Source of the DNA: a virus
Lineage: Duplodnaviria > Caudoviricetes
Virus record (IMG/VR): IMGVR_UViG_3300032239_000452
Span: 1-51,371 of that record
DNA length: 51,371 bases
Reading direction: 5' to 3' (one strand)
Within the stretch, counting starts at the first letter, position 1. The number at the start of each line of letters is the position of its first letter. A model generated the notes under the pieces. The model was not told the DNA's origin, did not search any database, and saw nothing but the letters and a program-made list of their open reading frames with translations. A program made the translations under genes and the position numbers. Positions 20,686-46,220 of this stretch are shown here, one piece after another.

Positions 20686-22560
20686 CTAGCCTGCGGGCCG
20701 GGTACCAACAATTTTAAATGCAGACGCATCCGGGGCTTGGGGGACAGTGCCCACCGCAGGAGCCTGCGCGGCCATTGTACCTGCGCTAGGCGAAATCATG
20801 CTAGCAACTTGTTGCTGAAACTGCGCCGCTTTAGCCATGTGCTGTTGGAACAAAGAAATATCTCCACTATGGCTTGCCAAATTTGCCGCTGCCTCTTCTT
20901 GCTTAGCCAAGTTAAGCAGGTTTTGTGCCGCAAACTTCTGCGCAGGAGACACTTGTGCAAGCAACGACTGTGCGCGGGCCTCAAACATTTGCTCTTTTGC
21001 GGGCATGATATCTGCATAGGCGTTGTGGTAACGAGCCATAGCCTTTTGCGCTTCGACTTCCGCCGCTTGTTTGTTGCGTGCAGCGCGCATCTGGCCCATT
21101 GTCAGACCAGCTTCGCCCAAGTTTTGCAGCGCATATTGAGACTTGCCAGCCAGCAACGCCATGCCCATGTTGAACATGTCCTCGTTGCTCATGTTAAAGC
21201 CGCCTTCTTCTTTTTTGGCTTCGGGAGAAGTCAAAGCGGCAATGCCTGTAATGTCTGGCTCTGCGGCAGCGGTTGCTGGGCTTGTTGCTCCGCCTTCGTA
21301 TCTTGCTAAGCGCGCAGTTTCGGCAGCAGACTGATCTGTAGCAGGTGACACCTCAGGTTCTTTAAAAGCGTCCGGACGGTTTGCTGGATCCATCATGGCT
21401 GCTGCAAGTTCTGGATCAATACCCGCTTCTCCAGTGTAGCCCGCCGTTGTTGGATTCATTAAACGGGCAATACCGCTTCCAATTTTTCCAAAAGAACTAC
21501 CAACAGTACTGCTGTACGGTGAAGGTTTTGAAGTAACTCCCGCATTTGGGGGACTCATGACCGCCGGTGCAATACCGTCAATACCAGTATCAAAACCAGT
21601 ATTGTCTTGCATTGCGTTTAATTGATTTGGGGTAGCCCTTGCCGCAGGCGCAGCAGGCTGGTCCAGACGGGCCAGCGAAAACGCGGGCGCGGCAGAGGGG
21701 AGTTCGGCTGCTTGGGCTGTTGAGCCGGGCATGGCTGCGTACAGCAGCTTACTAAACTTTTTCAAATAGCCTTGGGCTTCGCTTGGCAGCGCGGTGGGGT
21801 TGATTTGGCCGTTGTTATCGCGCAAGTGTTTGTTGAGGACGGACTCGCCTTGGTTGTAGGCCACCGCCATCTTGGCGCTATCGCCGCCGTACTTCTTCTG
21901 CAAGTCGGCCATAAACGCTAACGAAGCGTCTATATTTTTGTACGGGTCGGTGCGCTCGTCGGGATTTACGCCGTAGGCTTGCCCTGTTGCTTTTGTCAGT
22001 TGGCCGATGCCCACGGGGCCGGTCTTGGATCTAGCGTTAGCGTGGTAACCAGACTCGATACGGAAAATGCTGTCGGCCAAGTATGGGCTCAGGCCCATTT
22101 GGCGTGCTTTGGCAACCGCGTACTGACGGTATGCATCAATGGCGTCACCCTCACCACGCCCGGCACCACCTCCAGCATAGCCAGCAATACCGCCTTCAGC
22201 CATGCCTTGCAGATTCTGTGCGGGGAGCGCAGGAATTCCTTGGGGTTGTTGGCCCTGTGGGGCTTGGGGAATAGGTGCACCTTGTGGGGGCATGCCTTGG
22301 GGCGGCATACCTTGCGGCATTTGCGGGGGCATCACCGGCTGCGTCATCTTAGCGATGTCTTGGTCGGCTACCGTTGGGGGCTGTTGCCCTGCCATTTTTG
22401 CCATTGCAGCTGTACGCAGTTGCTGGCGGCTGTTGCTCTCTTGGATTGCCAACGACAAAATGTACGGATCGTTTTTGTGCATTGCAGCATACTGCTGCAA
22501 CTGCTGGTCGGGCATGCCGCGCAGCGTTGTCGTGATTTGGTTTACATTTGGGATCGGCAT
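20686..22560 (-). CDS. internal virion protein with lytic transglycosylase (SLT) domain
   Basis: IESG...A.S..GPVGIGQL...T, NI...., AYNQG motifs; Gln/Pro-rich N-terminus. Confidence 0.85.
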   Translation of the reverse strand: MPIPNVNQITTTLRGMPDQQLQQYAAMHKNDPYILSLAIQESNSRQQLRTAAMAKMAGQQPPTVADQDIAKMTQPVMPPQMPQGMPPQGMPPQGAPIPQAPQGQQPQGIPALPAQNLQGMAEGGIAGYAGGGAGRGEGDAIDAYRQYAVAKARQMGLSPYLADSIFRIESGYHANARSKTGPVGIGQLTKATGQAYGVNPDERTDPYKNIDASLAFMADLQKKYGGDSAKMAVAYNQGESVLNKHLRDNNGQINPTALPSEAQGYLKKFSKLLYAAMPGSTAQAAELPSAAPAFSLARLDQPAAPAARATPNQLNAMQDNTGFDTGIDGIAPAVMSPPNAGVTSKPSPYSSTVGSSFGKIGSGIARLMNPTTAGYTGEAGIDPELAAAMMDPANRPDAFKEPEVSPATDQSAAETARLARYEGGATSPATAAAEPDITGIAALTSPEAKKEEGGFNMSNEDMFNMGMALLAGKSQYALQNLGEAGLTMGQMRAARNKQAAEVEAQKAMARYHNAYADIMPAKEQMFEARAQSLLAQVSPAQKFAAQNLLNLAKQEEAAANLASHSGDISLFQQHMAKAAQFQQQVASMISPSAGTMAAQAPAVGTVPQAPDASAFKIVGTRPAG

Positions 22561-22561
22561 A

Positions 22562-23854
22562 TTATTTCCCCATACGTGCGAGGGCTAGACCGGCCAGACC
22601 GTCGCTTTCTTTAACTTGTCCACCCTTGGCAAACGGCTTGTAGCCCATAGACGCGGCAGTCATACCCAAACCGCCAATCTGAGACAGAGCGCTGGGCGGC
22701 GCGTTGTACGTTTGTTTTGATTCCTGAGCGATAGGCAACCCACGTAGCAGGCTGGACATAAAGCCTAGTTGCTGCTGCGGATAGTTGGCAGCGCTGCGGA
22801 AGTCGTTCATCTGTGAGTTCAGTACATTCTGAACGCTCTGTTGCTGCTGAGTACCTGTTGCATTTTGCAATTGGTTAATGCCCATGTTTTGAGCGTATTG
22901 GTTTTGACCCAAACTACCCAGCGTGTTAGCGCCAGTCAATGCCGTCTGGGCACTTTGCAACCCGAGACCCGCGCCAAACTGTTGCTGTTGTGCATTGAGT
23001 TGAGCTGCTGACTGACGTGCTTGCTGCTCGGTGTTGAACTGTTGCAGTGCTTGGTTGTACGCTGCTTGCGATCCTGTGGCTTGGATGCCTGCTAGATTTT
23101 GCTGCAATCCAGCGTTGTTTTGCGCGCGCATCACTGCGTCCCGGCCTCCGCCAAAAGCTCCGGCTTGGGTAGCCTGCGCCTGCTGTTGGGCACCGGCCAT
23201 ACCCGCATTACGCCGCGCAGCCTGTGACTGAACGTCCACTACATTTTGCATGTAAGGACTCATGTATGCCGACACATTGCTCTGGGGCTGGTAACCGCGT
23301 CCGGGCATATAGCCGCCACCCATACCTTGGCCTTGCGGGGGCTGCATCTGCTGGGAGTTTTGATCTTGCATCCCGCCGGGCAAGCTACCTAAGCCGCCCA
23401 TCATTCCTTGGCCACCGCCCATACCATCAAAAAACCCACGCTGCCCACCAACCGGGCCAAGAGCGCTTTGTGTACGATAAGGGTTGTAGTTGTACTGGGT
23501 ATTAAGTGCGTTGTATGTGGCTTGGTTTGCGGCCCCAGTAGCATTGCCTAACTGAGGGGCAGCTTGCATTTGCTCAGCGCCTTGGAACGCTTGCTGCTGC
23601 AATGGGGTAAATTGAGCGACTTGCTGGCCGGGGTATTGTTGGTAACCTTGGAACCCGGTAATGTTTGGCATTCCCGTGGCATCAACTGCGGTATTACCGC
23701 TGGCGTCTTTTCCGTATTGGAATACCGTGCCAGCCCCAGCGCCCAACATTTGCTGCACATACGGCGCGGCATAGTCGGGAATCGTAGTTTGGCTACTGGA
23801 TGTTGATGTGGGGATTGTTGCTCCACCACCGCCGCTGCTGCCGCCACCGCTCAT
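22562..23854 (-). CDS. Gln/Gly/Ala-rich internal virion (DNA ejection/pilot-like) protein
   Basis: YMSPY.QNVVD and AGAFGG.R motifs; located between the tail genes and the SLT protein. Confidence 0.7.
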   Translation of the reverse strand: MSGGGSSGGGGATIPTSTSSSQTTIPDYAAPYVQQMLGAGAGTVFQYGKDASGNTAVDATGMPNITGFQGYQQYPGQQVAQFTPLQQQAFQGAEQMQAAPQLGNATGAANQATYNALNTQYNYNPYRTQSALGPVGGQRGFFDGMGGGQGMMGGLGSLPGGMQDQNSQQMQPPQGQGMGGGYMPGRGYQPQSNVSAYMSPYMQNVVDVQSQAARRNAGMAGAQQQAQATQAGAFGGGRDAVMRAQNNAGLQQNLAGIQATGSQAAYNQALQQFNTEQQARQSAAQLNAQQQQFGAGLGLQSAQTALTGANTLGSLGQNQYAQNMGINQLQNATGTQQQQSVQNVLNSQMNDFRSAANYPQQQLGFMSSLLRGLPIAQESKQTYNAPPSALSQIGGLGMTAASMGYKPFAKGGQVKESDGLAGLALARMGK

Positions 23855-24255
23855 AATTTCACCTCAATAATTTGATATTTGGGTTCAAACCCGTAGCGTT
23901 TCCACAAACGCGTAACTGACTCACGAGTCGCGCCTTCCATAACGGTAGCGCCCATACTTACTGCGTACGCCTTTAACTGGGCAAAGGTGTCGGGGTTTGA
24001 AATCAGTTTGCCCCCAATTGCCGTAATAAAAGCTACACGGTCGTTCGCCCTATTAAAAAACTCTACGGTAACCGCGCCGTGAATTTTCTCATCTTCTGTC
24101 ACAACTAGCAACGCCCACTGCCCTTGGGCTACATAGGCTTTAACTTGATCGACAGTGTAGTCGCCCTTGGAATACTCAAGCGCCGAAGCAACGTGGGGCT
24201 CTGCCGCGTCCCAGACGCGGTGTACCCAAGCCAGATCGACGACTTCTAACTTCAT
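23851..24255 (-). CDS. hypothetical protein, possibly GNAT-like assembly factor
   Basis: 134 aa; AFITAIGG...RLWKRYGF pattern; position analogous to T7 gp13 / P22 gp14. Confidence 0.45.
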   Translation of the reverse strand: MKLEVVDLAWVHRVWDAAEPHVASALEYSKGDYTVDQVKAYVAQGQWALLVVTEDEKIHGAVTVEFFNRANDRVAFITAIGGKLISNPDTFAQLKAYAVSMGATVMEGATRESVTRLWKRYGFEPKYQIIEVKL

Positions 24256-27200
24256 ACCGGCAGGTGCCTGTCTGCGCGGCTGTTCACGGCTACGCTGTTT
24301 TTGCCTATGGTTTTACCACGGGCTTGCTGGACACGGGCCATCATTTCGTACAGCTTACGCGCCCCGGCGTCGGTTGAGCCGTTACCCAATTCCGAGACAA
24401 TCCGGGCGGGGATCACGAACTCTCCGTCAGCTAAGCGTGCTGGCTGGTGCTGCCCAATAGTAGCGGGGATGCTATCAGATACGCCATCGCCGGGGCCACG
24501 CAATAACCGGCCACCATCAGAGTATGAACCTAGGTTATACATCCCGCCTTGGGCCATGCCGCCCATAGCCAACGCCATAAGACCGCCACGGGCTGCTGTA
24601 TCAATTTCTTGGAAATTGTCGCCTGCAAGCTGCACTGGCTGTATGCCTTCGTTCATTTTGATGTTGTGCGACAACACACCCTCAGTCAAGTACGTGTGGG
24701 CGTCTTGGACTTCAATCTTTACGATAGGGCCGTGGTCAAAGTGGGCGGCTGACTTAACAACCGCAAAGCCCTCATGCTGCACAACTTTGTCGCCGGGTTG
24801 CAGGTGGCGGATTTCAGTCCAGTCCTTATCGGTCATGACGCGGTGGTTGAACGTACCCACGAACTCAGCGCCCCCTTCGAAGAGGACAGCCCAACGGGTG
24901 TCTTCTCCTTGTTCGACTGCCGTCACTGGGAAATTACCCCACTCGCCAGTTGTTTCGTGGCGCGTGTAGACCATCATGCCGGGTTTGATGTCGCCAGCGT
25001 TGACCACGCCGCCGCCAGCCATTGTGATCTTAATCCAAGGCGCAGGGCATGATCGACCGCTAGTTTCCCCGCCACCCAACGAAACTTGCTCGCCTTGTGG
25101 TGGTTGGGTTTGGATTTGCGTCTGGGTTTGATCGCCGCCGGAAGGCACGGTTTGAGTTTGCGTTTGATCGCCGCCAGAAGGAACTAGCGTAGTGATGCCG
25201 CTTTGATCGCCGCTTTGATCGCCGCTTGGGACTTGGGTTTGGGTTTGAACTTGGTCTCCGCCAGAAGGAACTAGCGTACTGATACCTGCCGCGCTTGGGA
25301 CTTCAGCCTTAAACGGTGTTGTTGATCCACCGCCGTAGTTGATGCCTGTTAACGTGTTATTGACAGCGGCAGCGTTCAACGCCTCTTGCGCCGCAGCTAC
25401 GGCATCAGAGCCGCGATTTCGACCCATCCATGCGTCTACTCTTCCTCTGTAGTCGGGGTTTCCAAAGTACTGCGCAATATCTACTCCTCCAACTGTGGTG
25501 GCAATCAATGGGCTAACAGTAATCGAACCTGTTTTCGTGGTTGTAGCTGCGTTATTTACAACATTATTTAAGTTGGTGAAATTATTGTTAAGCGCGGTAA
25601 TCCCGCTCGTGTTTCCTTGAACAAAAGCATCATGCGCAGCTATGGTGGCCAAGTCGCTAGGCGTCAGGGTTGTGTCGTCCACTGTGGAAGAGGGGACTGT
25701 TGTTGGCGCAGAGGGTTCAGAAGGTGCGGATGGAGACGGCACGCTAGGCGAAGGTGCAGAAGGCTCCGAAGGGGCGGAAGGCACCGACGGCTCAGACGGC
25801 ACAGACGGCACAGACGGAACGGACGGTTCTGCGGGTGCAACAGGTATTGATGGTACAGACGGCGGCTCCGAGGGTTCAGAAGGTGCAGATGGTGGCGGCA
25901 CGCTTGGCGAAGGTGCAGGAGGCTCCGAGGGAGATGGTACCGAGGGTGTGGATGGCACAGACGGTACCGAGGGTTCAGACGGTACAGAAGGAGGTTCAGC
26001 CGGTGCAGACGGTACAGACGGTACAGACGGTACCGAGGGTTCAGAAGGCTCAGTCGGTGTAGACGGTACCGAGGGTTCAGACGGTACAGAAGGAGGTTCA
26101 GCCGGTGTAGACGGTACCGAGGGTTCAGACGGCTCCGAAGGAGACGGCACGCTAGGCGAAGGTGCAGAAGGCTCCGAAGGAGATGGCACGCTAGGCGAAG
26201 GTGCAGAAGGCTCCGAAGGAGATGGCACGCTAGGCGAAGGTGCAGAAGGCTCAGACGGTACCGAGGGTACAGACGGTTCCGCCGGAGGCCCAGAAGGAGT
26301 CGATGGTGCTGAAGGTGCAGACGGCTCCGAAGGAGACGGTACAGACGGCTCAGTAGGTGTAGATGGTACTGAGGGGGACGGCGCGCTAGGCGACGGCGTG
26401 GATGGGGGAGCCGAAGGCTCCGAGGGTTCAGAAGGCGCAGATGGAGACGGCACGCTAGGCGAAGGTGCAGGAGGCTCCGAGGGAGATGGCGTAGAAGGTA
26501 CGCTTGGCGAAGGTGCGGATGGAGACGGCACGCTAGGCGAAGGTGCAGAAGGCTCCGAAGGGGACGGAGCGCTAGGCGACGGCGTAGATGGCACCGAAGG
26601 CGTAGACGGCACCGAAGGCGTAGACGGCACCGAAGGTGTAGACGGTACCGAAGGTGTAGACGGTACCGAAGGTTCGCTTGGCGAAGGCCCAGAAGGTGTA
26701 GACGGTACCGAAGGTTCGCTTGGCGAAGGCCCAGAAGGCGTAGACGGTACAGACGGAGACGGTGCACTAGGCGAAGGCGTGCTAGGCGAAGGTGCAGAAG
26801 GCTCCGAGGGAGAAGGAGTGCTGGGCACCGATGGAGACGGAGTGCTGGGCACCGATGGAGACGGAGCGCTGGGCGATGGAGTGCTAGGCACCGATGGAGA
26901 CGGAGCGCTGGGCGATGGAGTGCTGGGCGACGGTGCAGAAGGCTCCGATGGAGACGGAGCGCTAGGCGATGGGGTGCTAGGCACCGATGGAGATGGAGCG
27001 CTAGGCGATGGCGTAGATGGAGTGCTGGGAACCGAAGGCGTTGAAGGCACAGACGGTGCCGACGGTGCGGATGGGGGCGCGGATGGGGGCGCGGATGGTG
27101 GCTTAGACGGAGGCGCAGATGGGGCCGAGGGAGGCGCGCTAGGAGGAGTTGGAGGAGCCGAAGGCGCTGCTTTACCCGGGCCATAGCCCATCAAATAGTT

Positions 27201-28481
27201 ATACGCTTCTGCGGAATCCCCTGTCATGCTGTAGTTGGGATTCAACGCAGCCGGTGAAGCGCGGCCTTGAGCAGCGCCAATCGTGTTGTAGTGGTAGGTT
27301 GCGTATTGGTTGGGGCTTAGACCACGCGAGTTTGCCATGTACGCAGCGTGCGCATCAGGATTATTTTGGAAATAACGCAGCGTGTTAAGCGAGAAAGGTT
27401 GCTTGGTATTGTCGCCAACACCTTCTGTTGCAAAGTTGCCTATTGGCGGGCGGTTTATGCCAAGAACTGGGCGCTCAGCTAGTTGCGGGCTAAGATTGGT
27501 TCCGTACCCCATATCCGCGCCGGACAAAGATTTTTGGCCGGTTAGGGAAGATGTAGTTGAAGGAGTAGCGGCCGTACCGGGATCTGTGGTTGTGTAGTCT
27601 GTCACTCCTGCTGCCAACGCGGCAGAGGAGTCAATATACTTTTTTCCGTCCGGACCCCAAACCGGAGTCCTAGTAGGGCCACCGCCGTCAAAACGAACTG
27701 CACCGCCATCAGCCAAGTGCACTGTAGAAGCGTCTCTAATTCCCAACGATTGCAAACCTTGAGTGCGTGGGTCATACGCAAACGGGCGGATGTACTGGGG
27801 CGTGTTGGTGCTGGGGGGCATGGAAGTCGTTGTATTGATATTGGCCAGTACCGGCAGCGCTGCTGCGGCCATAGGCTTCCAGCCAATTGACTTTGCCACT
27901 CCCAAGGGGTTTGATGCTGCTTGCTCCAGACCGGCAGTCACGGGGTTTTGAGCCCCGGCCATCTGGGCAGCAATATCTGTAGCGCCCCGGTTGGCCAAAA
28001 TGTTCGCAGGGTTCATCGCCTCTTTGGCGGCAAGGCGGGCCGTCTCTTCCGCCGTTTGATTTCCAGCAGCCTGCGCCATTGCGTTTGTGCCAGCCGTGGC
28101 CAAACCGCCTTCAATACCAGCACCACCCCAAGCACCGAGGCCGGACATCAATCCATGCGACAAACTACCAGTAGCCAGCGAGTCAATACCGCCGACAGTC
28201 AAACCAGCGCCCAGCGCTGCGCCGCCACCAAACATCCCACCAACAGCCCCCATAGCCTCGGGAGCAACAAAAGCAAGAGCCGCGCCAGCCAATGTGGGCA
28301 GCAGGTTATCCAAGAACCCAGCTTCGGGTAGTCCCGTCTCGGGATTGATAGTCAGCGTGCCGCCATGTGCCTGAGCCAGCTTTTGAAGACTCTGCACCTC
28401 TTTGGGTGACATGTGGACAAGCGTGGAGTCAGGCCCGCGACCCTGCGCGGCCATGTGGTTTGCGAGTACTTGCAGGCTCAT
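24252..28481 (-). CDS. probable internal virion protein with Pro/Ser repeat tract and Hint (BIL-type) domain
   Basis: 1409 aa; GAGG RBS; N-terminal GRGPD..LVHM...INPETGLPEA; PS repeats; Hint C1145-N1273; C-terminal GPGDG.SDSIPA...ADGEFVIPA domain. Confidence 0.85.
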   Translation of the reverse strand: MSLQVLANHMAAQGRGPDSTLVHMSPKEVQSLQKLAQAHGGTLTINPETGLPEAGFLDNLLPTLAGAALAFVAPEAMGAVGGMFGGGAALGAGLTVGGIDSLATGSLSHGLMSGLGAWGGAGIEGGLATAGTNAMAQAAGNQTAEETARLAAKEAMNPANILANRGATDIAAQMAGAQNPVTAGLEQAASNPLGVAKSIGWKPMAAAALPVLANINTTTSMPPSTNTPQYIRPFAYDPRTQGLQSLGIRDASTVHLADGGAVRFDGGGPTRTPVWGPDGKKYIDSSAALAAGVTDYTTTDPGTAATPSTTSSLTGQKSLSGADMGYGTNLSPQLAERPVLGINRPPIGNFATEGVGDNTKQPFSLNTLRYFQNNPDAHAAYMANSRGLSPNQYATYHYNTIGAAQGRASPAALNPNYSMTGDSAEAYNYLMGYGPGKAAPSAPPTPPSAPPSAPSAPPSKPPSAPPSAPPSAPSAPSVPSTPSVPSTPSTPSPSAPSPSVPSTPSPSAPSPSEPSAPSPSTPSPSAPSPSVPSTPSPSAPSPSVPSTPSPSVPSTPSPSEPSAPSPSTPSPSAPSPSVPSTPSGPSPSEPSVPSTPSGPSPSEPSVPSTPSVPSTPSVPSTPSVPSTPSVPSTPSPSAPSPSEPSAPSPSVPSPSAPSPSVPSTPSPSEPPAPSPSVPSPSAPSEPSEPSAPPSTPSPSAPSPSVPSTPTEPSVPSPSEPSAPSAPSTPSGPPAEPSVPSVPSEPSAPSPSVPSPSEPSAPSPSVPSPSEPSAPSPSVPSPSEPSEPSVPSTPAEPPSVPSEPSVPSTPTEPSEPSVPSVPSVPSAPAEPPSVPSEPSVPSVPSTPSVPSPSEPPAPSPSVPPPSAPSEPSEPPSVPSIPVAPAEPSVPSVPSVPSEPSVPSAPSEPSAPSPSVPSPSAPSEPSAPTTVPSSTVDDTTLTPSDLATIAAHDAFVQGNTSGITALNNNFTNLNNVVNNAATTTKTGSITVSPLIATTVGGVDIAQYFGNPDYRGRVDAWMGRNRGSDAVAAAQEALNAAAVNNTLTGINYGGGSTTPFKAEVPSAAGISTLVPSGGDQVQTQTQVPSGDQSGDQSGITTLVPSGGDQTQTQTVPSGGDQTQTQIQTQPPQGEQVSLGGGETSGRSCPAPWIKITMAGGGVVNAGDIKPGMMVYTRHETTGEWGNFPVTAVEQGEDTRWAVLFEGGAEFVGTFNHRVMTDKDWTEIRHLQPGDKVVQHEGFAVVKSAAHFDHGPIVKIEVQDAHTYLTEGVLSHNIKMNEGIQPVQLAGDNFQEIDTAARGGLMALAMGGMAQGGMYNLGSYSDGGRLLRGPGDGVSDSIPATIGQHQPARLADGEFVIPARIVSELGNGSTDAGARKLYEMMARVQQARGKTIGKNSVAVNSRADRHLPV
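24663..25049 (-). other. Hint (intein-like autoprocessing) domain, 129 aa
   Basis: Block A CPAPWIKI, block B TFNH, L.PGD, block F VKIEVQDAHTY, block G SHN; the +1 residue is Ile; no endonuclease. Confidence 0.85.
25695..27170 (-). repeat. coding tandem-repeat tract (PSAPS / PSVPST / PSEPS units)
   Basis: About 1.5 kb; 18-nt unit x5 near 26580-26670; 39-nt unit x3 near 26131-26250. Confidence 0.95.
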
Positions 28482-28520
28482 ATTTGCCTCTTAAAAGGGG
28501 GGTTATCCGATATTATCATG

Positions 28521-28868
28521 TCAACCGACTTTCCAGTTAGTTCCGTCTGAATATACGGGGACAGCAACAGCGCCGCCGGTTACGACCGTAGCGCCAAAAG
28601 TAGGGGTTAGCGCATCAATCACAAAAGCCCTAGCGCCTACGCCGGAAGTTGCTGCGCTAGGTAGTGCAGCCACTGTGTAATTTTTTAATGGCGGTATGAC
28701 TTCTTGTGTCGTTAATTGCTGCGCCAAATTGGTTATTTGATTGAAATACAGCCGAAAAATGTTATTGAGCTGGTCTATATATTGCCGGTCATACTCCGGC
28801 GTAGCCAACGGCAAGTTAGGCGCGGCAAACTTGGTAAGTGTGTTTTTGGTGCTAACAATGTATGACAT
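28521..28868 (-). CDS. small tail-associated protein
   Basis: APNLP.A..EY...Y......RLYFNQ N-terminus; C-terminal PVYSDGTNWKVG; follows the nozzle gene. Confidence 0.65.
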   Translation of the reverse strand: MSYIVSTKNTLTKFAAPNLPLATPEYDRQYIDQLNNIFRLYFNQITNLAQQLTTQEVIPPLKNYTVAALPSAATSGVGARAFVIDALTPTFGATVVTGGAVAVPVYSDGTNWKVG

Positions 28869-28869
28869 A

Positions 28870-30954: not shown

Positions 30955-30962
30955 CGCACATC

Positions 30963-31439: not shown

Positions 31440-31591
31440 TTGCGTTTCACCGTCTGTACGCAACCAACCTTGTACCCCAGATCACGCCACTCCTGAGCCG
31501 CTTTTTGACAAGCGGCCTCGTACTCAAAGTACCCGACAACTGTGACGTACTGCATATTAATCCCCGATATAAGCACCAGAGTCCAGATCAT
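31436..31591 (-). CDS. small protein with N-terminal hydrophobic segment (lysis module)
   Basis: MIWTLVLISG...ACQ...GCVQ; ATGA overlaps on both sides. Confidence 0.55.
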   Translation of the reverse strand: MIWTLVLISGINMQYVTVVGYFEYEAACQKAAQEWRDLGYKVGCVQTVKRK

Positions 31592-32576: not shown

Positions 32577-32586
32577 GGGTCACCTG

Positions 32587-36343: not shown

Positions 36344-36345
36344 GA

Positions 36346-37341: not shown

Positions 37342-37712
37342 TAGGTTATAGCCTCATACGATGCAGTTAATTCAATAGCTGAAGCAGTGTTTACCGTAAC
37401 AACAATAGATTGTGCTTCCCCGAGATAAAACGCAGTGCTTTTATCAGCAACAACAATTGCTGCATTAGCTGGTATTGGCACTTGGTAAATTAAACGATAA
37501 TTAGTTCCAGCCCCAGCTGCTGCGCTATTAATTGCAATAGTTACCGTTGCAGTAGAGCTAGTGACATTAGCAGCAACAATATTGTCAATTTTATTTACCG
37601 TGCCAGACGCAGGAGTAAGCGCAGTCCACGTAGTAGCTGATGTTGTGCTGGGGATTAAATAGTTTGTATTTCCGTAAATGGAACTTGCGTTAATTAAATT
37701 AGGATTTGCCAT
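37341..37712 (-). CDS. virion structural protein (tail region)
   Basis: MANPN start, beta-rich, SYEAI end. Confidence 0.6.
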   Translation of the reverse strand: MANPNLINASSIYGNTNYLIPSTTSATTWTALTPASGTVNKIDNIVAANVTSSTATVTIAINSAAAGAGTNYRLIYQVPIPANAAIVVADKSTAFYLGEAQSIVVTVNTASAIELTASYEAIT

Positions 37713-37721
37713 GCTGCTTCC

Positions 37722-38072
37722 TTAGTATCCAAAAACAATGGATGAGATTAATGATCTGCCAAATGTAGTTGCCCGTTCTGCTGGTAATGTACAAAATACG
37801 TTTTTAGTACCTGCGGAAAAGTTTACCAGCGAACCTGAGTTACTGGATGCTATTACTGTTGTGCGGGATAGTGTTGTACCAGACAAAGTATAAGTACCAA
37901 TCCCAACTTCCCACTCTGATCCGCTTTGCCCTGCAATTGTGTAATACGTTGAATTTCCATCCCCAATGGCAGAAAAACTTTGAAATCCAGTAACTGCGCC
38001 AAGTAGCGTAGCAGTACCTGTCCCGGTGACTGTAGTGGTTTCTTGTACTCGGTCAGCAATTATGAGTGCCAT
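37722..38072 (-). CDS. tail fibre N-terminal-type protein
   Basis: DRV.ET....GTG, WEVG.GT, LSR..V, FSAG.K.VF.T.PA. Confidence 0.65.
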   Translation of the reverse strand: MALIIADRVQETTTVTGTGTATLLGAVTGFQSFSAIGDGNSTYYTIAGQSGSEWEVGIGTYTLSGTTLSRTTVIASSNSGSLVNFSAGTKNVFCTLPAERATTFGRSLISSIVFGY

Positions 38073-38080
38073 ACATATAC

Positions 38081-39223
38081 CTATGTGTTAATTACCTGCC
38101 AAGCAGCAGTTTGTGCGTTGCTTATGGCCTGCCAAGCAGCCGTTTGCGCATCGGATATGGCCTGCCAATTGGGGTTTTGACTGTCGTCAATTACTGTCCA
38201 AGGTGGGTAAACAGTTCCAACTTGACCACTGGCCTGAACACCAGTAAGCGCTTGGGCAACATTTTGACTTGTTCCAACGTTTCCTGCAAGAGCAGATGCT
38301 GAAACTCCAGTCAACGAAATTGCAACTTCTCTGGAGACATCCCCCACTGCTCCGGAGGCAACCACACCTGTCAGCGCAATATTTGTTAATTTGCTGGGTG
38401 ACACTGTGCCCGTGGAGCCCGCTGCCTGAACTCCGGTCAGCGCTTGGGATGCTGCCGCTGTAGTGCCTACTGTCCCCGCGCTACCTTGAGCTTGTACCCC
38501 AGTTAAGGCTTTGGATATAACAAACGATGTGGTTACAGATCCAACTGACCCAGATGTAGATACCCCGGTAAGTGCTTGAGATATCTCAGTAAATGCAGTT
38601 ACTGACCCAACTAATCCTGCTGCGCTAACGCCAGTTAATGCCTGTGAAGCCGTAGCTGAAGTAGTTACTGTTCCAACACTACCAAATGCTTGTACTCCAG
38701 TTAATGCGCTTGAAACTGCAGCAGAAGTAGTTAATGTTCCTACGTTACCTGCGGCTAATACGCCAGTTAAAACTACAGAAATTCCACCTGTGTTTACTAT
38801 CCCTACACTACCAGATGCCGATACACCAGTTAGTGCTTGGGATACCGCCGCAGATGTTGTTACTGTTCCAACATTACCAGACGCTTGTACCCCCGTTAAC
38901 GCATTTGAAACTGCGGCAGAAGTAGTTACCGTTCCAACATTTCCAGAAGCTAATACCCCGCTAAGAGCAACAGATACAGCCTGTGATGTTGTTACTGTTC
39001 CTGTGTTTCCAGAAGCGGATACCCCACTAAGTGCGAGACTAATTCCACTTGTTTCTGTGCCGACCTGTCCTGATGCTTGTACCCCAGTTAACGCTACAGA
39101 TATATTTGAAACGCCCCAAGGCCCAGAACCCCACGTACCAAAACCCCACCCCTGAGTAGGGGCAGAAGTAGTACTCCCCGTACCTCCAAAGGGGGCTCCG
39201 GCGAACGGGGAAAATCCGAACAT
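38081..39223 (-). CDS. repeat-rich structural protein (14 copies of a ~20-22-aa xALTGVxAxGxVGTV repeat)
   Basis: Repeats counted by hand; C-terminal W..I...Q 11-aa repeats. Confidence 0.75.
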   Translation of the reverse strand: MFGFSPFAGAPFGGTGSTTSAPTQGWGFGTWGSGPWGVSNISVALTGVQASGQVGTETSGISLALSGVSASGNTGTVTTSQAVSVALSGVLASGNVGTVTTSAAVSNALTGVQASGNVGTVTTSAAVSQALTGVSASGSVGIVNTGGISVVLTGVLAAGNVGTLTTSAAVSSALTGVQAFGSVGTVTTSATASQALTGVSAAGLVGSVTAFTEISQALTGVSTSGSVGSVTTSFVISKALTGVQAQGSAGTVGTTAAASQALTGVQAAGSTGTVSPSKLTNIALTGVVASGAVGDVSREVAISLTGVSASALAGNVGTSQNVAQALTGVQASGQVGTVYPPWTVIDDSQNPNWQAISDAQTAAWQAISNAQTAAWQVINT

Positions 39224-39254
39224 GGCCTACACGGCTATTAGCCGCGCCCCGCTA

Positions 39255-39731
39255 TTAGGTTGTAGCCAAACGCAACAATGCTGTTGTCGTAGTATTGGAC
39301 GGCATAGTCAGCGTAAACGTACCCGCAGTAATGGTCTGTGCAGTAAACGTATGAACGCTAACAGCCTTGTTTGACTGCGTGGAGTTATAGATAAACACCG
39401 TGTCAAACGAACTTGTTAGGGTAACAGAACTGTACACAATAGATGCAGAAGGAGTCCAGTAGCCAACGCCTGCGGTAACAGAAGAGTTAGTTGAACTTGG
39501 GGCAGTTGCATTTGTGATCGTGACGCCGCCTGCGGTGTAGCCTGCACCCGTAACTTCACCAGTAGCCGAATAGGCTGTAGTGGAAGCATTGAGCGTGGCT
39601 GATGCCAAATATAGCGCGGCTTTGAAGGTGTCGGCAGTGGTTGCGCCACGAACCGGGGATGCGCCAAAATTATGTGTTGCAGTCATCAGTTCGCCGAGGA
39701 ACGATGTGCACATTGATTGGGTGTTTGCCAT
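39255..39731 (-). CDS. virion structural protein (paralog of 39935..40357)
   Basis: TSF..EL, DTFK.ALY, TTAYS.T.EV.G.GYTAGG. Confidence 0.7.
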   Translation of the reverse strand: MANTQSMCTSFLGELMTATHNFGASPVRGATTADTFKAALYLASATLNASTTAYSATGEVTGAGYTAGGVTITNATAPSSTNSSVTAGVGYWTPSASIVYSSVTLTSSFDTVFIYNSTQSNKAVSVHTFTAQTITAGTFTLTMPSNTTTTALLRLATT

Positions 39732-39740
39732 GGTATTTCC

Positions 39741-39935
39741 TTAGAAAGAAGCTGTATCGCCACCCGCAAAAACGGGCATGTGTTTCAGAGTTACGTGTAC
39801 AGAACGGTGCACAAGCTCGCCATCCAGCCAGTACTCAGTCCACGCTGTGAGTTCGTTCTCATTATCTATGGTGCCCTCTTGTTTGACAAGCAGGGAATCG
39901 TCCATGTCGCCTTTGGTGGTAGTCACAAGTGCCAT
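39741..39935 (-). CDS. hypothetical protein
   Basis: 64 aa; TTKG.MD...EYWL.GELVHRS.H. Confidence 0.65.
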   Translation of the reverse strand: MALVTTTKGDMDDSLLVKQEGTIDNENELTAWTEYWLDGELVHRSVHVTLKHMPVFAGGDTASF

Positions 39936-40357
39936 TAAGCGCTCCTGATAAGTGCGGTTGAATAAGTATTGCTAGGCATGGTCACGGTAAACGTGTTTGT
40001 GCAGGACTTATCTGCCCCAAAATCAATGACCGCTACAGAGGCATTTGCCCGGCTTGAATTGTAAATTAGTGCGCAGCGCGTGGTGAAATTTGCTGGGTTC
40101 CAAATCACATTGTCAAAGTTGACGTACACCACACTGTTGGTGGCATCGTAATTGAGTGTGACTCCAGTCAGGGCTTTTCCCCCGGCGGTGTAGCCGGTGC
40201 CGGATACTTCGTTGGTTGTGCTGTACGCAGTCGTGGTCAGGTTCAGATTGGCATTGCCGTTGTACAGCGCCATGTAAAACGTGTCCGTCGTGAAGTTCTG
40301 CGTACCTTGGAACAACTGGTACTTGAAACTGGTGGTCTGCCCTTGGACGATGCTCAT
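39935..40357 (-). CDS. virion structural protein (paralog of 39255..39731)
   Basis: TSFK, DTF..ALY, TTAYS..NEVSG.GYTAGG, DFG.DK. Confidence 0.7.
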   Translation of the reverse strand: MSIVQGQTTSFKYQLFQGTQNFTTDTFYMALYNGNANLNLTTTAYSTTNEVSGTGYTAGGKALTGVTLNYDATNSVVYVNFDNVIWNPANFTTRCALIYNSSRANASVAVIDFGADKSCTNTFTVTMPSNTYSTALIRSA

Positions 40358-41271
40358 GGTATAGCCACCCTAGTCTGTCCGGTGCGGTAGGCGTCGGTGC
40401 GCTCCATGCCATCACCCAGACGTTTAGCCAGACCAAGCGCTTCAGCGTACCGGCTCTGGTACAGCTGCAACATATCGCCCTCGCCCTTCATAAAGGTGTA
40501 GGCTTCCAGCAGAGTTCCGTACAGCAGTACAGAATCAAAGTTGTCGCCCAGCCACGAAGTGCCGTTTGCGTTATTTACTGTGGCTACGGTGACGGAGCAG
40601 GAAGTTCCAGTGCCGCCGATGCTTGCAATCGGCACAACCAAAGAATCGCCCACCCTGTACAACGAGCCGCCATTGGCAATTGTTACCGAATAAACTGCGT
40701 TGGATGCTACGACTACGGTAGCCGTAGCGGCTGTGCCAGATCCGCCTGTCAGGGCCACGTTGTAATACGTACCATTGGTTAGCGAGCCAACAGAAGTAGG
40801 GGTGTTAAGCCCAGTAATGATGCCCTGCACAATGGACGGCGGGTAGAAGAAGTAGTGCAGCTCAAGACCGTAGTTGGTGTCCGGTGTGGGGCCAACAATA
40901 AAAGTCAGCTCGTTGGGCAGCGAAGTTTGTGGGCCAAAAATGCCGTAGTACTTGGGTGTGCCTTTGATCGAGGGATCAGGGTACGCCTCGCGCATGAAGT
41001 TGACATCCTTATCTAATAGATAGCTGTAGATGCCGGTTGTCTGGTTAATTAGCGCGAGCGAGTAAACCGCCAAAAAATCGTCGGGACAGGCAATGTATTT
41101 GTTGTTGGCTGTCGCCGTACCCGTCACGTTCTTGCGAAGTGCGGGGAACTGGATGGAATTGAATACGCGCTGCTCAGCCTGCTGGACAAACGTAGGAATG
41201 TCGGCAACAAACGTAGACTCAGAGTTCTGAGTGTAGTCCTGTACAAGCTGAACGAGCTGCGCGTAATTCAT
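40354..41271 (-). CDS. head-tail adaptor / tail tubular protein A-like
   Basis: MNY.QL...QDY, AE.R, P.D.L, GPTPD, LLYG.L.EA. Confidence 0.65.
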   Translation of the reverse strand: MNYAQLVQLVQDYTQNSESTFVADIPTFVQQAEQRVFNSIQFPALRKNVTGTATANNKYIACPDDFLAVYSLALINQTTGIYSYLLDKDVNFMREAYPDPSIKGTPKYYGIFGPQTSLPNELTFIVGPTPDTNYGLELHYFFYPPSIVQGIITGLNTPTSVGSLTNGTYYNVALTGGSGTAATATVVVASNAVYSVTIANGGSLYRVGDSLVVPIASIGGTGTSCSVTVATVNNANGTSWLGDNFDSVLLYGTLLEAYTFMKGEGDMLQLYQSRYAEALGLAKRLGDGMERTDAYRTGQTRVAIP

Positions 41272-41540
41272 GCCATCGGGCCTCGGGCCATAACGCCTTT
41301 AGTTGCGCAACCAGTGCCACGGATTTTGATGCCGGTGGTCTCGATGCTGTCATTGATGCCAATGCTCATGCCGTTAGGCACGGGGTCTTCCAAGCTCACT
41401 TGGTCAGCCACTTTCTTGGTCATGTATTCCTTGCGTGGAATACTGCCGTCAATAGCTTTGCCTTTGGAGTTGTGTGGCTGGGCGTAAACGGACGCTGGCC
41501 CGTTCTCTTTACCCATGCTTTTGGAGCTGAACTTAGCCAT
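41268..41540 (-). CDS. small basic protein
   Basis: Ends GIKIRGTGCATKG.MARGPMA. Confidence 0.7.
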   Translation of the reverse strand: MAKFSSKSMGKENGPASVYAQPHNSKGKAIDGSIPRKEYMTKKVADQVSLEDPVPNGMSIGINDSIETTGIKIRGTGCATKGVMARGPMA

Positions 41541-41776
41541 TATTTACCCCTTGAAGAACCGCGCTGGTTGGCAACGCGCGCCATATTGCGACCCATAGAC
41601 CGCATAGCTTGTCCTGTGACTCCGCCTTTGGCCATGCGATCCAAACCGCCTTTTTTGAGGACGATCTTGGTTCCCTTGCCACCTTTGTGCTCTTGCATAT
41701 CATGCTCTTTAAACGCCTTCTTAATCATAGCGACGTCTTGCTTTTTGTCCGCTGCCATTGATTCTGCTTTTGCCAT
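41540..41776 (-). CDS. small basic protein with LKKGG/MAKGG motifs
   Basis: 78 aa; AGGAG RBS; Lys/Met-rich. Confidence 0.75.
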   Translation of the reverse strand: MAKAESMAADKKQDVAMIKKAFKEHDMQEHKGGKGTKIVLKKGGLDRMAKGGVTGQAMRSMGRNMARVANQRGSSRGK

Positions 41777-41785
41777 AATAAACTC

Positions 41786-42175
41786 CTATGTTACCGATAC
41801 CGTAACTGTACCAATAGTTCCGAGTAAAACCAAGTTATTTGGCGTTAACACGGAATCAAAACTGCTGGCACCGCCAATCGGATTCCAGCCCCACTGTATA
41901 TCCCTCGAACCGCCGCCCGGGAATCCCAGATAGTCCGGGCCAGACTGCGTGTAGCTACGATCTGGGCGAGGGTTGCGAACCGCTTGCGGATCATCTACTG
42001 GGTACATACCCAACTGCAACTGCGGCTGATCTGGATCCCAACAAACCGGACAGACCAAGAGGTTGTACAACTTGGTCTTGATTATCTCTTTTTTCAGCTC
42101 CGTCAGCTTAAAGCGGAACCCACACCGATCACATTCGGCGATTGAATTCTTGCCGGATGCGAACCTATTGCCCAT
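41786..42175 (-). CDS. Zn-ribbon protein
   Basis: CDRCG...C..CWD.D.PQ...DPQA...PRPD. Confidence 0.7.
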   Translation of the reverse strand: MGNRFASGKNSIAECDRCGFRFKLTELKKEIIKTKLYNLLVCPVCWDPDQPQLQLGMYPVDDPQAVRNPRPDRSYTQSGPDYLGFPGGGSRDIQWGWNPIGGASSFDSVLTPNNLVLLGTIGTVTVSVT

Positions 42176-42176
42176 A

Positions 42177-43124
42177 TTATCCGCCCGAACCTATGTACAT
42201 ACGGCGCGGCACAAACCGCACGGAGGCTTTTTCTCGATCTTCTTCGGACGCCAACTGCCAAGCCTCGTCGTACTGGGCTTTCAAAATTGGCAAGCGCTCC
42301 AACGAATTTGGGATCTTGAGCGCCATGTAGTAGGCCAGCCCGGCCACCATGCAGGTAATAAACCGGAAGGGTACGTCCATGACGTTGACGCCGGTGCCTG
42401 CGTCTTGCATGCGGCGCAGCCGCCAGTACACGAACTGATAAGTTGTGGAGCCATCGGGCGTTGGCCAGACGGTGATGCTGTTCTTTTGGGATAGGGTTAA
42501 TACTGCCCCAGAATTGTGCGAAGCCGCCGTCGTTGTCCCTTGGCCGCGTGTGCAGTTAAGCAGGTAGGCGGGGGTTGTGGCGGTGGCCGCTTGGGTTTCG
42601 TTGAACCCGATCAGCTCAGAATCAATGGTGACAAACCCAGCGGTGGGCACGCCGGATAGAGAAGAAACTGGGATTTGGGTGGTGGCAGCGGTGATACCAG
42701 CTTGCAAACTCACCGGCAGGATGGAGTCCTGCGCCGTCAATCGTTGAATCCAAACTTGAATTGGTCGGGCTTGCACCAGCTTGTTGGGGATCGTGGCGTA
42801 GGTAGACACGCTGATCCGGGTGATGTTCAAGTCGGCTTGGTTGTTGGGGGAGTTGGCGTTTGTGCGGATAACGTGCTCAAGCAAGTCCACCGTGTCGTCC
42901 GGCAGCGCGTAGGTTGGCTGGCCTTGTACTAGGGTGATCGTCTGCTGCTCAAACGTCCACATGTTGATGCCACGGTTGGCCCAATCAGCGAACAAAAGGT
43001 TCAAAGACCGGCGTGCAGTACGCAGGTCATAACCAGTGCGCAACTCGGAGCCCGCGCGCTCGTACGCTTCCTCGACGATTTCCGTGAGGTCGATATTAAA
43101 CGCTGCGGCTCCCGAGGTGGTCAT
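42177..43124 (-). CDS. head completion / adaptor-like structural protein
   Basis: EEAYER.G, ARRSLNL....WANRG.N.W, WP.PD, P.RF...MVAGLAYY. Confidence 0.65.
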   Translation of the reverse strand: MTTSGAAAFNIDLTEIVEEAYERAGSELRTGYDLRTARRSLNLLFADWANRGINMWTFEQQTITLVQGQPTYALPDDTVDLLEHVIRTNANSPNNQADLNITRISVSTYATIPNKLVQARPIQVWIQRLTAQDSILPVSLQAGITAATTQIPVSSLSGVPTAGFVTIDSELIGFNETQAATATTPAYLLNCTRGQGTTTAASHNSGAVLTLSQKNSITVWPTPDGSTTYQFVYWRLRRMQDAGTGVNVMDVPFRFITCMVAGLAYYMALKIPNSLERLPILKAQYDEAWQLASEEDREKASVRFVPRRMYIGSGG

Positions 43125-43297
43125 TTTTTCAGCCCTTTAAGCGTCATTGCTAGACGCGCTTGCTTGCCCGTTGTTCCCGACGACTTGGCTGCTTTTGCCA
43201 GTTTTTTTGCGGGAATGGGTTGACCCTCTTTAGCACCAAGTTTCTTGCGTAAAGCACCGGGGTGCTTGATCGCTTTCTGTATCCATTTTTCAGCCAT
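43121..43297 (-). CDS. small Lys-rich protein (58 aa, not in ORF track)
   Basis: Hand translation MAEKWIQKAIKHPGALRKKLG...ARLAMTLKGLKK; overlaps both neighbours. Confidence 0.75.
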   Translation of the reverse strand: MAEKWIQKAIKHPGALRKKLGAKEGQPIPAKKLAKAAKSSGTTGKQARLAMTLKGLKK

Positions 43298-43530
43298 TAT
43301 CTGAACCCCGCTGTTTTCTTTGCAATGGTTTTGGGCTGCGCCACAAACTGTTTACCTGCCGCTTTGCCTGCACGTTTGGCCTTGGTGGTAGCGGCGTATT
43401 CGGCGGGGCTCAGAGATTTTATGGCCTTTTCCGGCAGATATCGCTCCCCCGTCTTGCTAGATGGTTTGCCAGATTTGGTGCGCCATTTTTGCGCTGTCCA
43501 ATCCTTGAGCGATTGCTGCGGTGCTTTCAA
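43297..43530 (-). CDS. small basic protein
   Basis: SLK.W..QKWRTKSGK...TGERYLP...KQFV.QP. Confidence 0.75.
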   Translation of the reverse strand: MKAPQQSLKDWTAQKWRTKSGKPSSKTGERYLPEKAIKSLSPAEYAATTKAKRAGKAAGKQFVAQPKTIAKKTAGFR

Positions 43531-43802
43531 TCTCTGTAACCTCCGCCAGCAGCCTTGTACTTCTTGGCTACAAGCTGCGCCTTACGTGCTGACCATTGAC
43601 CTGCGCCGGTGCCTTGGGTTGCTGCGGCTTTTACTTTGGACACAATCTGCTTGCGCAGACTGGGCTTTGTGTAATTCCCCGCAGCATTGACCCCGCCGCC
43701 CTTGGCGAACTGCTCAAAGTCAGTATCGTCACGGCGGGCGAGCTTTTTGCCCTTGGGCATTTTTGAGGGATTGACGTCCCCCATCCCACGGCTGGCCATC
43801 AT
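43527..43802 (-). CDS. small basic protein with FAKGG motif
   Basis: MASRGMG, VN.AGNYTKP, GQWSARKAQ, GGGY. Confidence 0.75.
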   Translation of the reverse strand: MMASRGMGDVNPSKMPKGKKLARRDDTDFEQFAKGGGVNAAGNYTKPSLRKQIVSKVKAAATQGTGAGQWSARKAQLVAKKYKAAGGGYRD

Positions 43803-43805
43803 GAT

Positions 43806-44039
43806 TTAGCAGTATTTACCTACGGTCTTGCCACGCATGGCAATCCCGTCAGCGCGGCTGGAGGCGGAACCGCCCGAAGCCATTTTCTTAACACCGCCAC
43901 CACGCTTCATACCGGGCATAGCCCCAGCACCGGGCGCAGGAACTTGAGGGGCCGCAGGGCCTTGTGTAGGCGCAGCAGAAGGAGCGGCCATAGCCGCCAT
44001 CATTGCCGGGGGAATGCGGCGGGCTTTACGTGTGGCCAT
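43806..44039 (-). CDS. small basic protein with MKRGG/MASGG motifs
   Basis: Ends SASSRADGIAMRGKTVG; AAGGA RBS. Confidence 0.7.
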   Translation of the reverse strand: MATRKARRIPPAMMAAMAAPSAAPTQGPAAPQVPAPGAGAMPGMKRGGGVKKMASGGSASSRADGIAMRGKTVGKYC

Positions 44040-44048
44040 GATTAATCC

Positions 44049-44237
44049 TTACTTGCGAGTCATGCCGCCACCGCACATCGCTTTGACGTGATCGGCGTGC
44101 ATCTTGTGACCCGCAGCGTGCGGACGCATGAAGTCATTGTGGTGCTTGTGCCCTGCGGCGTGCGGCATCACAAATTCGTTGTTCATCTTGTGAGCAGGGG
44201 TCGGCTCTTTCATCAGGGGTGGGTGATCCATTTTCAT
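44049..44237 (-). CDS. His/Met-rich peptide
   Basis: 62 aa with 10 His and 9 Met; PHAAGHK x2; AAGGAG RBS. Confidence 0.7.
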   Translation of the reverse strand: MKMDHPPLMKEPTPAHKMNNEFVMPHAAGHKHHNDFMRPHAAGHKMHADHVKAMCGGGMTRK

Positions 44238-44246
44238 GATTACTCC

Positions 44247-44636
44247 TTATTTGCGGACTTTGCCGCCACGTTTCATACCAGTATCGGAACCAGACATTTT
44301 GGGCATCATGCCCTTGGTCTTGCCGCGCTCAGCAATACCATCACGGCTGGGGGCTGCGGTTTTTACTGCGCCCATTGATTTGCTGTCTGCTGCCATTTTT
44401 TTCGTTGCCATAAGTCCACCTTTTGCAAATAAGGCCTCTTGACCGTGATCGGTCTTTGGCCGGTTAACGCCTTCTACGCTAGGCCGAGTGTACCCACCTG
44501 ACCTAAACTTCTTGCCTTTGTCGGCTTGGAGGAAGTCCTCCCCGACGCTTTGCTTGATACCAACCTTTTTGGCAAACGCAGGATTCTTGGCCACTGCTGC
44601 CATCAGGTTGTGTTGTTTCTTACTCGTCGAGGGCAT
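44247..44636 (-). CDS. small basic protein with three xxxGG motifs
   Basis: Start moved to MPSTSKKQHNLM; FRSGG, FAKGG, MKRGG; RDGIAERGKTKG. Confidence 0.75.
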   Translation of the reverse strand: MPSTSKKQHNLMAAVAKNPAFAKKVGIKQSVGEDFLQADKGKKFRSGGYTRPSVEGVNRPKTDHGQEALFAKGGLMATKKMAADSKSMGAVKTAAPSRDGIAERGKTKGMMPKMSGSDTGMKRGGKVRK

Positions 44637-46191: not shown

Positions 46192-46219
46192 AATATACAC
46201 TATTTTTGGGCCGTGTCAA
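46192..46219 (-). promoter_or_regulatory. sigma70-type promoter
   Basis: TTGACA-16 nt-TATATT on the minus strand, just upstream of the structured leader. Confidence 0.7.
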
Positions 46220-46220
46220 C

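Follow-up and report, generated by a model that had tools for sequence, protein, structure and literature searches.

Tape measure cleavage and motif-directed maturation of head proteins are both known kinds of phage protein processing. The capsid-targeting sequence of phage T4 is a single N-terminal tag that is sufficient to package a fused foreign protein. In phage T5, the tail protein pb2 is cut after R1127 to give pb2* and pb2C, as determined from proteomic data and with LC-ESI-TOF mass spectrometry, and residues 1085-1127 were modelled as the new end (Linares et al. 2023, PMC10038345); the accessible text of that paper names neither an enzyme nor a motif. In phage lambda, gpH loses ~14 kDa after tail assembly to give gpH*, and both the site and the catalysis were stated to be unknown in 2025 (Ur-lambda paper, PMC12617516). 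In crAss001, parts of the cargo protein C1 gp45 (PF25725, crAss_CARG1) lie ~420 Å apart in the head and the tail and were bridged by the authors with a continuous chain; the resolved portal-bound domain comprises residues 425-552 (Bayfield et al. 2023, PMC10172136). Here, we analysed a 51,371-bp stretch of viral DNA (IMG/VR record IMGVR_UViG_3300032239_000452; hereafter, the window), in which eight minus-strand genes for late proteins share a short peptide motif built on Gly-Gly. We see about an even chance that this motif is a maturation signal that is cut before its Ala/Lys as in T5 pb2, probably by a small module at the C terminus of one of the eight proteins, and that the cuts free cargo domains; that the motif is cut at all appears probable.

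The window is the whole contig of a short-tailed phage, and its genome is incomplete because the terminase and most of the portal are not on the contig. The replication genes are on the plus strand, while the minus strand carries, in this order, a portal fragment, GroES, a scaffold-like gene, the capsid gene, small basic proteins, two SU10-type adaptors, fibres, a lysozyme, the nozzle and an ejection block. Identities of the capsid protein are 71.0% with MinM2/Yong1, 63.8% with the pelagiphage HTVC023P and 56.3% with CRP-901, and the gene order is similar in these podophages; judged by capsid similarity and by the order of head and ejection genes, the phage is an HTVC023P/MinM2-like podophage. 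Phages of the HTVC023P type are podoviruses, and this group has been reported to be the most abundant one known among marine phages (bioRxiv 2019.12.14.876532, accessible text). Like the window phage, HTVC023P, HTVC027P, MinM2 and DSL-LC04 carry the motif; CRP-901, by contrast, has neither the module nor the strict motif.

Eight late proteins share an [AK]xGG motif

The initial annotation had listed 18 copies of a [FMLY]xxGG motif in eight genes, and all 18 are present in the named open reading frames (ORFs) on the minus strand:

20686..22560, minus strand: 624-residue ejection-type protein with an SLT lytic transglycosylase domain (residues 148-250); MAEGG (22189-22203) and YAGGG (22165-22179) lie just ahead of the SLT domain.
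22562..23854, minus strand: 430-residue Gln/Gly-rich ejection-type protein; FAKGG (22619-22633), then a 17-residue tail.
24252..28481, minus strand: 1409-residue modular protein with a conserved N-module, a motif pair, variable cargo (Pro/Ser repeat and Hint), a motif cluster and a conserved C-module.
41540..41776, minus strand: 78-residue basic protein; LKKGG and MAKGG.
43527..43802, minus strand: 91-residue basic protein; FAKGG between a constant N-part and swappable C-parts, in one copy in 30 of 31 family members.
43806..44039, minus strand: 77-residue basic protein; MKRGG and MASGG, then a constant C-terminal peptide often ending in Cys.
44049..44237, minus strand: 62-residue His-rich protein; MCGGG; the weakest member.
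44247..44636, minus strand: 129-residue basic protein; FRSGG, FAKGG and MKRGG; the likely start is at 44636, and the longest ORF starts at 44684.

All eight proteins are likely internal to the virion, because of gene position, the SLT domain, the LPD38-bearing neighbour and the PHROG labels.

With four doubtful ORFs removed, the loose form [FMLY]xxGG occurs 22 times in the eight genes (2,916 residues) against 4.7 expected and a maximum of 13 in 1000 shuffles; the 53 other ORFs have 20 matches (18.2 expected). For the strict form [FMLY][AK]xGG, the eight genes have 14 matches (0.9 expected) and the 53 other ORFs a single one (2.6 expected). Since the eight genes were picked after the motif was seen, the fair test is to leave out one family at a time: 2,331 ORFs were called on 160 related loci and assigned to window genes by BLAST, and a profile trained on seven families was scored on the eighth, with 100 shuffles that keep GG pairs as controls. 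The predicted enrichment by gene class across related phages was found, with seven of the eight families beating all 100 shuffles and the 44049 family tying the maximum (hits in the held-out family/per shuffle: 33/2.8, 79/9.7, 178/23.6, 24/4.6, 27/4.0, 36/3.2, 108/14.1 and, for 44049, 5/1.4), the homologues being non-independent samples. Among 20 control families, 15 scored 0, including the capsid (0 of 81 proteins), the portal (0 of 25), the nozzle (0 of 71), the scaffold-like protein (0 of 70) and the adaptors; the remaining five had 3, 1, 6, 3 and 1 hits, with a slight excess in two of them (41268, 6 vs 1.7; 45064, 3 vs 0.6). By this design, the motif signal is common to unrelated families. 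Together with the window counts, the test rules out chance or a Gly background, and a DNA repeat is ruled out by the codons under the copies, which differ at silent sites; therefore, the signal is at the protein level.

In the homologues, the consensus is [MYFL]-[AK]-x-G-G-x-[VATM]. The GG core of the originally proposed motif stood, and its aromatic/hydrophobic first position was relaxed: the core is [AK]-x-G-G-x-[VATM], and a preceding M/Y/F/L is preferred and not required, the residue before A/K being variable (F, M, Y, L, K, R, A, N) and GG constant. That copies come in close pairs also holds in the homologues, where 169 of 426 spacings are at most 12 residues. Like the prohead-protease maturation codes and the T4 capsid-targeting sequence, this is a short motif common to internal head proteins that are processed during assembly, processing being a prediction here; unlike in those systems, no recognisable prohead protease family is present and the capsid and scaffold are motif-free, and, unlike the T4 tag, the copies in the window are internal or C-terminal and repeated, with 1-8 per protein.

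The cut in T5 pb2 and a domain start in crAss001 gp45 coincide with the motif

T5 pb2 is cut at FVPR/AEGG-M-M (the slash marks the cut), and a GEHGTEVV segment follows. No [AK]xGG other than AEGG occurs within the final 200 of the 1219 residues of pb2, and 11 of 11 distinct T5-like sequences have retained it. The cut at R/AEGG-x-M falls on the same peptide, in the register proposed here, and at the start of a small domain with a Glu followed by a hydrophobic strand. T5 differs in having one site in one tail protein, as against many sites in eight head/ejection proteins in the window, and in a domain that is not detectably homologous by profile.

In crAss001 gp45, residue 425, at which the resolved domain begins, is the Ala of N424/AFGG, and the next site is at 560. 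In 18 relatives, the start is [AS]xGG in 15 and xxGG in all 18. Gp45 resembles the window proteins as an ejection protein with nine [AK]xGG and small basic modules between the motifs, and the resolved domain, which starts on one of the motifs, holds a VEQGEVV strand; it differs in that its homology to the window module is not significant and that no cleavage is reported in the accessible text (PMC10172136). Cuts at 261, 330, 371 or 425 would be another way to explain the ~420 Å separation. The four gp45 peptide ranges from mass spectrometry that are named in that text span no motif and are neutral.

Lambda gpH has a module homologous to that of the window, with FATGG (733) on one side and YATGG (778) on the other, close to where the ~14 kDa is removed (TIGR01541 region). 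Three upstream AxGG sites in gpH fit the mass as well or better, and the window module has no TIGR01541 match. The lambda fragment mass was dropped as support, since the five AxGG sites fail to discriminate. For phi24B, F-pyocin and DT57C, no mapped cut site was found in the accessible literature. In total, the only measured cut (T5), the one resolved start (gp45) and exact DUF6321 fusions (see below) make X/A-x-G-G the likely position of the cut, as opposed to GG/x.

The C-module of the 1409-residue protein is homologous to tape measure distal modules

The last 89 residues of the 1409-residue protein match proteins annotated as tape measures. With a profile made from podophage modules only, matches were obtained to tape measures from Faja, Douge, Sasha, a Vibrio phage and R26L (E 2e-21 to 5e-9) and to lambda gpH (E 0.0055, Z=177,635). 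Profile matches in the PDB, obtained with an alignment that included a lambda-type row, are the JBD30 hook (E 1.8e-10) and Douge gp16 (E 1.5e-35). A core, G.G..SD.I.A.L..GE[FY]V, is common to the C-module and the distal modules of tape measures (lambda gpH ~733-790, JBD30 1018-1067, Douge). By profile and shared core, the C-module is homologous to this distal module. The module in the JBD30 tape measure (hook, residues 1022-1066) and in Douge gp16 is the same by profile; unlike here, the accessible text on JBD30 presents a structural hook as predicted, places a cut behind it as speculation and defines neither a family nor a motif (PMC11445458). Among 90 aligned modules, Gly-Glu alone is invariant and Ser-Asp is conserved in 94-99%; in the window module, Asp1336 (24474-24476) and Glu1354 (24420-24422) are nearly invariant. 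In total, 9,839 clusters at 50% identity match the window module.

Searches of Pfam (E up to 1 for the window module) and NCBIfam gave no family for the module, including no PF25725 and no TIGR01541 match, and a single-sequence search of the PDB was empty. Two models of modest quality (predicted local distance difference test, pLDDT, 66 and 69.5; the second is of a tape-measure-type module, L274, and not of that in the window) were used in fold searches that were uninformative on the fold: Foldseek against the PDB gave nothing at E 0.001, the best match by VIA had Z 3.3 and consisted of helices only, and the other search gave nothing at Z 2. A BFVD fold search gave weak matches (E 0.03 or worse), mostly to tape measures.

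The motif accompanies the module. Of 76 tape-measure-type modules, 72 have an AxGG just in front and 61 have one just behind; outside the module, tape measures are barely enriched (45 vs 25.5 expected). In HTVC104P-like phages, the module forms the end of a protein whose gene lies between the portal and scaffold-sized genes, and these proteins have 97 motifs outside the module against 3.3 expected. In 73 of 80 loci, two genes of 260-340 residues (scaffold- and capsid-sized) come right after this gene, and in 39 of 80 it directly follows a portal-sized gene, many of the loci being cut off upstream. The place between the portal and the scaffold/capsid genes is the usual place of a prohead protease. 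Examples of this arrangement are L181:6144-7445 (HTVC104P gp81) and L186-L265. Of eight cultured phages, the module is present in six and absent from two; strict motifs (observed/expected) were 3/1.9, 7/2.3, 5/1.8, 2/2.0, 9/2.3 and 2/1.3 in the former and 0/2.6 and 1/0.8, i.e. without excess, in the latter. This comparison covered partial regions, excluded Gly-rich proteins and included HTVC104P, which was found via the module; the pattern is consistent with a link between module and motif and weak.

Two further observations concern proteins with the module. Some tape measures (L179:1606-6705, L184:796-4842, L270, L326) have two modules around inserted domains, following the same cassette logic as the podophage protein. 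In p58 of Pseudomonas phage F116 (L180:11950-14052), the annotated start is inside the module and the frame is open upstream through FKKGA and LAEGG, which makes an earlier start probable.

Motifs border the cargo of the 1409-residue protein

The 1409-residue protein has the following parts, from its N terminus:

28263..28478, minus strand: conserved N-module with invariant Asp, His and Glu and an NPxTG..EA end; second candidate.
27678..27716, minus strand: motif pair LADGG and FDGGG at the N-terminal border of the cargo.
24663..25049, minus strand: Hint domain from Cys1145 to His-Asn1273 (PT-HINT, 28.1 bits vs a cutoff of 27.7).
24510..24596, minus strand: motif cluster AARGG, LAMGG, MAQGG and YSDGG between the cargo and the C-module.
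24255..24521, minus strand: C-module (residues 1321-1409), homologue of the tape measure distal module; candidate cutter or reader.

Homologues have 225-1349 residues, some being shortened by contig ends, and 1-8 motif copies. The claim that motifs sit at domain borders was confirmed in this family, in which motif clusters are present on both cargo borders between constant N- and C-modules; the C-module starts with X-A/S-x-G-G, as YSDGG in the window, and 80 of 83 members of the family share this. A further MAGGG at residue 1154, within the Hint domain, is probably incidental. The protein is not a whole tape measure, given its variable Pro/Ser cargo and the podophage gene set (SU10-type adaptors, nozzle), and neither the whole protein nor its end modules gave a tape-measure family match.

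The Hint domain, with its Cys start and His-Asn end, is a second self-processing device within the cargo, and an occasional one, since at most 5 of 83 homologues have an [SV]HN end; in the homologues L025 and L045, a different Cys-led domain follows a Gly run at its place. Also in the cargo, 25642-27186 encodes ~500 residues of Pro/Ser/Glu tandem repeats, with both strands open for >500 codons and a jump of the GC skew to 0.26. The N-module (28263-28478) precedes Gly/Ala-rich hydrophobic helices and may act as a leader peptidase or be itself a leader that is cleaved off, as in P22 gp7. It has no PDB sequence match, and an origin as a duplicate of the C-module was not supported (hhalign probability 0.1%), although the Asp/Glu spacing is alike by eye.

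Motifs lie at the junctions of exchangeable cassettes

In relatives of the window phage, the small basic proteins are cassettes that occur alone or fused. A ninth gene enters here:

44826..45071, minus strand: DUF6321 basic protein, motif-free here and fused to motif-bearing modules in relatives.

Where modules encoded by different genes of the window are joined in relatives, 26 of 32 junctions contain the motif. In 2 further junctions, ADGG directly follows what is the native last residue of stand-alone DUF6321, and 2 have ADGC there; a cut before ADGG would be in the register that restores this native end.

The ejection-type proteins are similarly built. All 16 members of the 20686 family score, with the motifs placed between an N-part that is constant and content that varies. 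Of 36 short homologues in the 22562 family, 35 terminate in xxGG plus a short tail, while in 23 of 28 long homologues the motif comes directly after the core and further sequence follows. Only 5 of the 28 long forms are 20686-like at E<0.01, so joining of the 22562 gene to the 20686 gene is not proposed as a general feature of relatives. Members of the 44247 family have 1-7 copies, and their N terminus matches PHROG 'virion structural protein' families.

A candidate maturation signal cut before Ala/Lys

Under the proposed mechanism, X-[A/K]-x-G-G-x-(hydrophobic) would mark the joints of the eight late proteins and be cleaved just before Ala/Lys. The proteins would be packed into the prohead as precursors, and the cuts would release the channel-forming parts, which are conserved, from cargo that can be swapped (SLT, Pro/Ser-Hint) and leave the small basic proteins as peptides of 1-6 kDa; predicted products include a 9.3-kDa C-module starting with SDGG and a 51-kDa SLT fragment. 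The module may cut at its own start, as in tape measures, and cut other proteins in trans, using Asp1336 and Glu1354. The simplest chemistry would be two carboxylates that activate water, with or without a metal and perhaps in an oligomer; intein-like chemistry is unlikely because the residue at the new start is no nucleophile. That 15 of the control families are hit-free is as expected if cutting is harmful there. In total, the processing function put forward in the initial annotation gains from the cut in T5 pb2 on the same peptide, from the position of the motif at module junctions and from its absence from shell and tail proteins; the register changes, and the cut in this phage is a prediction.

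Several points weigh against this proposal. Cleavage in this phage is predicted only. T5 is the sole mapped cut, and R1127 is also a trypsin site; moreover, the T5 domain was missed by the module profile (E 2.7e3) and by the crAss profile and has been described as carrying a muralytic metallopeptidase motif (PMC10038345, accessible text). The crAss authors treat gp45 as continuous, the string 'cleav' being absent from the main text and one supplement (PMC10172136), and a motif that was no more than the first strand of the resolved domain would give the same domain start. Between the module and the crAss domain, hhalign gave a probability of 1.8% (P 0.027), and an Atlas match of 0.84 is a lead only; statistics do not establish that the module is kin to the T5 and crAss domains, which resemble it at the level of sequence pattern only. 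Lambda does not discriminate, as its five AxGG sites would give C-terminal fragments of 14.8, 14.6, 14.1, 12.5 and 7.7 kDa for the ~14 kDa reported. The module itself is small (50-90 residues) and has no invariant His or Cys; no protease fold was recognised in the two models, whose modest quality (see above) cannot exclude a family, and those who described JBD30 saw no peptidase motif in the stretch homologous to the module (PMC11445458, accessible text). AxGG is present at the start of none of 77 HTVC104P-type modules, and 3 of the 6 module-bearing cultured phages (3/1.9, 2/2.0 and 2/1.3) show little strict excess. Many of the cassette junctions are 50-90 residues long, so that a motif there is not very specific. 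Finally, tandem copies 5-11 residues apart suit avidity as well as cutting.

Alternative explanations

In the most serious alternative, which we consider unlikely, the motif would be an uncut docking or loading tag that mimics the first strand of the module, binds the module, the portal or a scaffold and gathers cargo into the prohead, with tandem copies adding avidity. Both the close spacing of copies and the ease with which they are gained and lost fit such a tag, as does the binding of the motif-led gp45 domain to the portal wing (PMC10172136, accessible text); in HTVC104P-type modules, an F-x-G-x-G variant replaces AxGG, which suggests a structural role. The tag is at odds with the T5 cut, which is exactly on the peptide, and with the tape measures, which carry the motif yet are not head cargo. 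It also leaves the 2379-residue ejection-type protein (3 hits vs 7.4 expected) and three small basic window proteins without a tag; these motif-free proteins weaken the general form of the capsid-targeting code that had been suggested at the outset. Cutting and docking can coexist, since the motif-led domain of gp45 binds the portal.

We regard it as quite improbable that the motif is cut as in T5 by another enzyme, i.e. a host protease, the N-module with its Asp/His/Glu, a SprT-like gene (5498-5809) or the HExxH region of the 2379-residue protein, with the C-module merely binding the freed Ala N terminus or anchoring the fragment. The small size of the module, which has no recognised protease fold, and the presence of these other candidates speak for such an enzyme, and the title of a 1973 paper mentions a role of the host in cleaving a T5 tail protein. 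Against it, motif and module travel together in siphophage tape measures and in two podophage groups with very different hosts, and gpH is cut after tail assembly (PMC12617516, accessible text), when access for an outside protease would be poor.

Cleavage after GG by an adenain/African swine fever virus (ASFV)/SUMO-type cysteine protease, as first proposed from the resemblance to (M/I/L)xGG and consistent with the invariant GG, is very unlikely: the only mapped cut lies four residues earlier, before A-x-G-G, the fusions join at X/ADGG, and no clan-CE (adenain/ASFV/SUMO-type) protease family was matched by Pfam or PHROG among the 59 ORFs of the window, an incomplete contig. A flexible hinge or recombination seam that has no binding or cutting partner would suit motifs in low-complexity linkers at module joints and is scarcely credible given the specific residue preferences on both sides of GG, the divergent codons, which leave no DNA repeat, and the enrichment over GG-preserving shuffles.

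Returning to the maturation signal, the new element would be that siphophage rulers, crAss cargo and these podophages share an X/AxGG signal along with a candidate module; among the papers listed by open-access literature searches, as far as texts were accessible, none was found that defines the motif or the module, and the string 'FAxGG' was absent from those listed by one search. If true, the proposal bears on how lambda gpH and T5 pb2 are cleaved, for which it predicts a bond and one or two acidic residues, and it links the rulers of long tails and the ejection proteins of short tails through one maturation signal. A portable signal for cutting or loading would be a handle for protein delivery by phage heads. 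The reach could be large, the module being very widespread and the related HTVC023P-type group being the abundant marine group cited above. More tentatively, with the chances below even, the 50-90-residue Asp/Glu module may be an unrecognised family of self-processing virion peptidases cutting X/A-x-G-G, which would provide one chemistry for lambda gpH and T5 pb2, make crAss gp45 a polyprotein and have the most abundant aquatic podophages load cargo as motif-delimited cassettes.

Other features of the window and its relatives

The small basic proteins often end in Cys: a C-terminal Cys was found in 16 of 25 members of the 43806 family and in 22 of 33 of the 44247 family, after a constant ADG.A.RGKT.G, and in none of 19 other families counted. 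DUF6321 proteins also end in W[NK]C, and the terminal Cys is a possible thiol cross-link or metal site. His-rich small proteins in the basic head-gene cluster (44049-44237, minus strand) are extreme in relatives (L092:7565-7909, L096:15387-15620) and may bind metal.

The 2379-residue polyvalent protein (13532-20671, minus strand) has LPD38 (residues 2094-2269) and a HELLH zincin-like motif and does not have the AxGG signal. Between the ejection genes, a 134-residue gene (23851-24255, minus strand) has a weak acetyltransferase match (E 0.13), and the gene at the matching place in CRP-901 and QDWS535 is annotated as GNAT. An HNH endonuclease gene (46206-46601, plus strand) lies on the opposite strand within the head gene cluster and adjoins an acidic 168-residue ORF.

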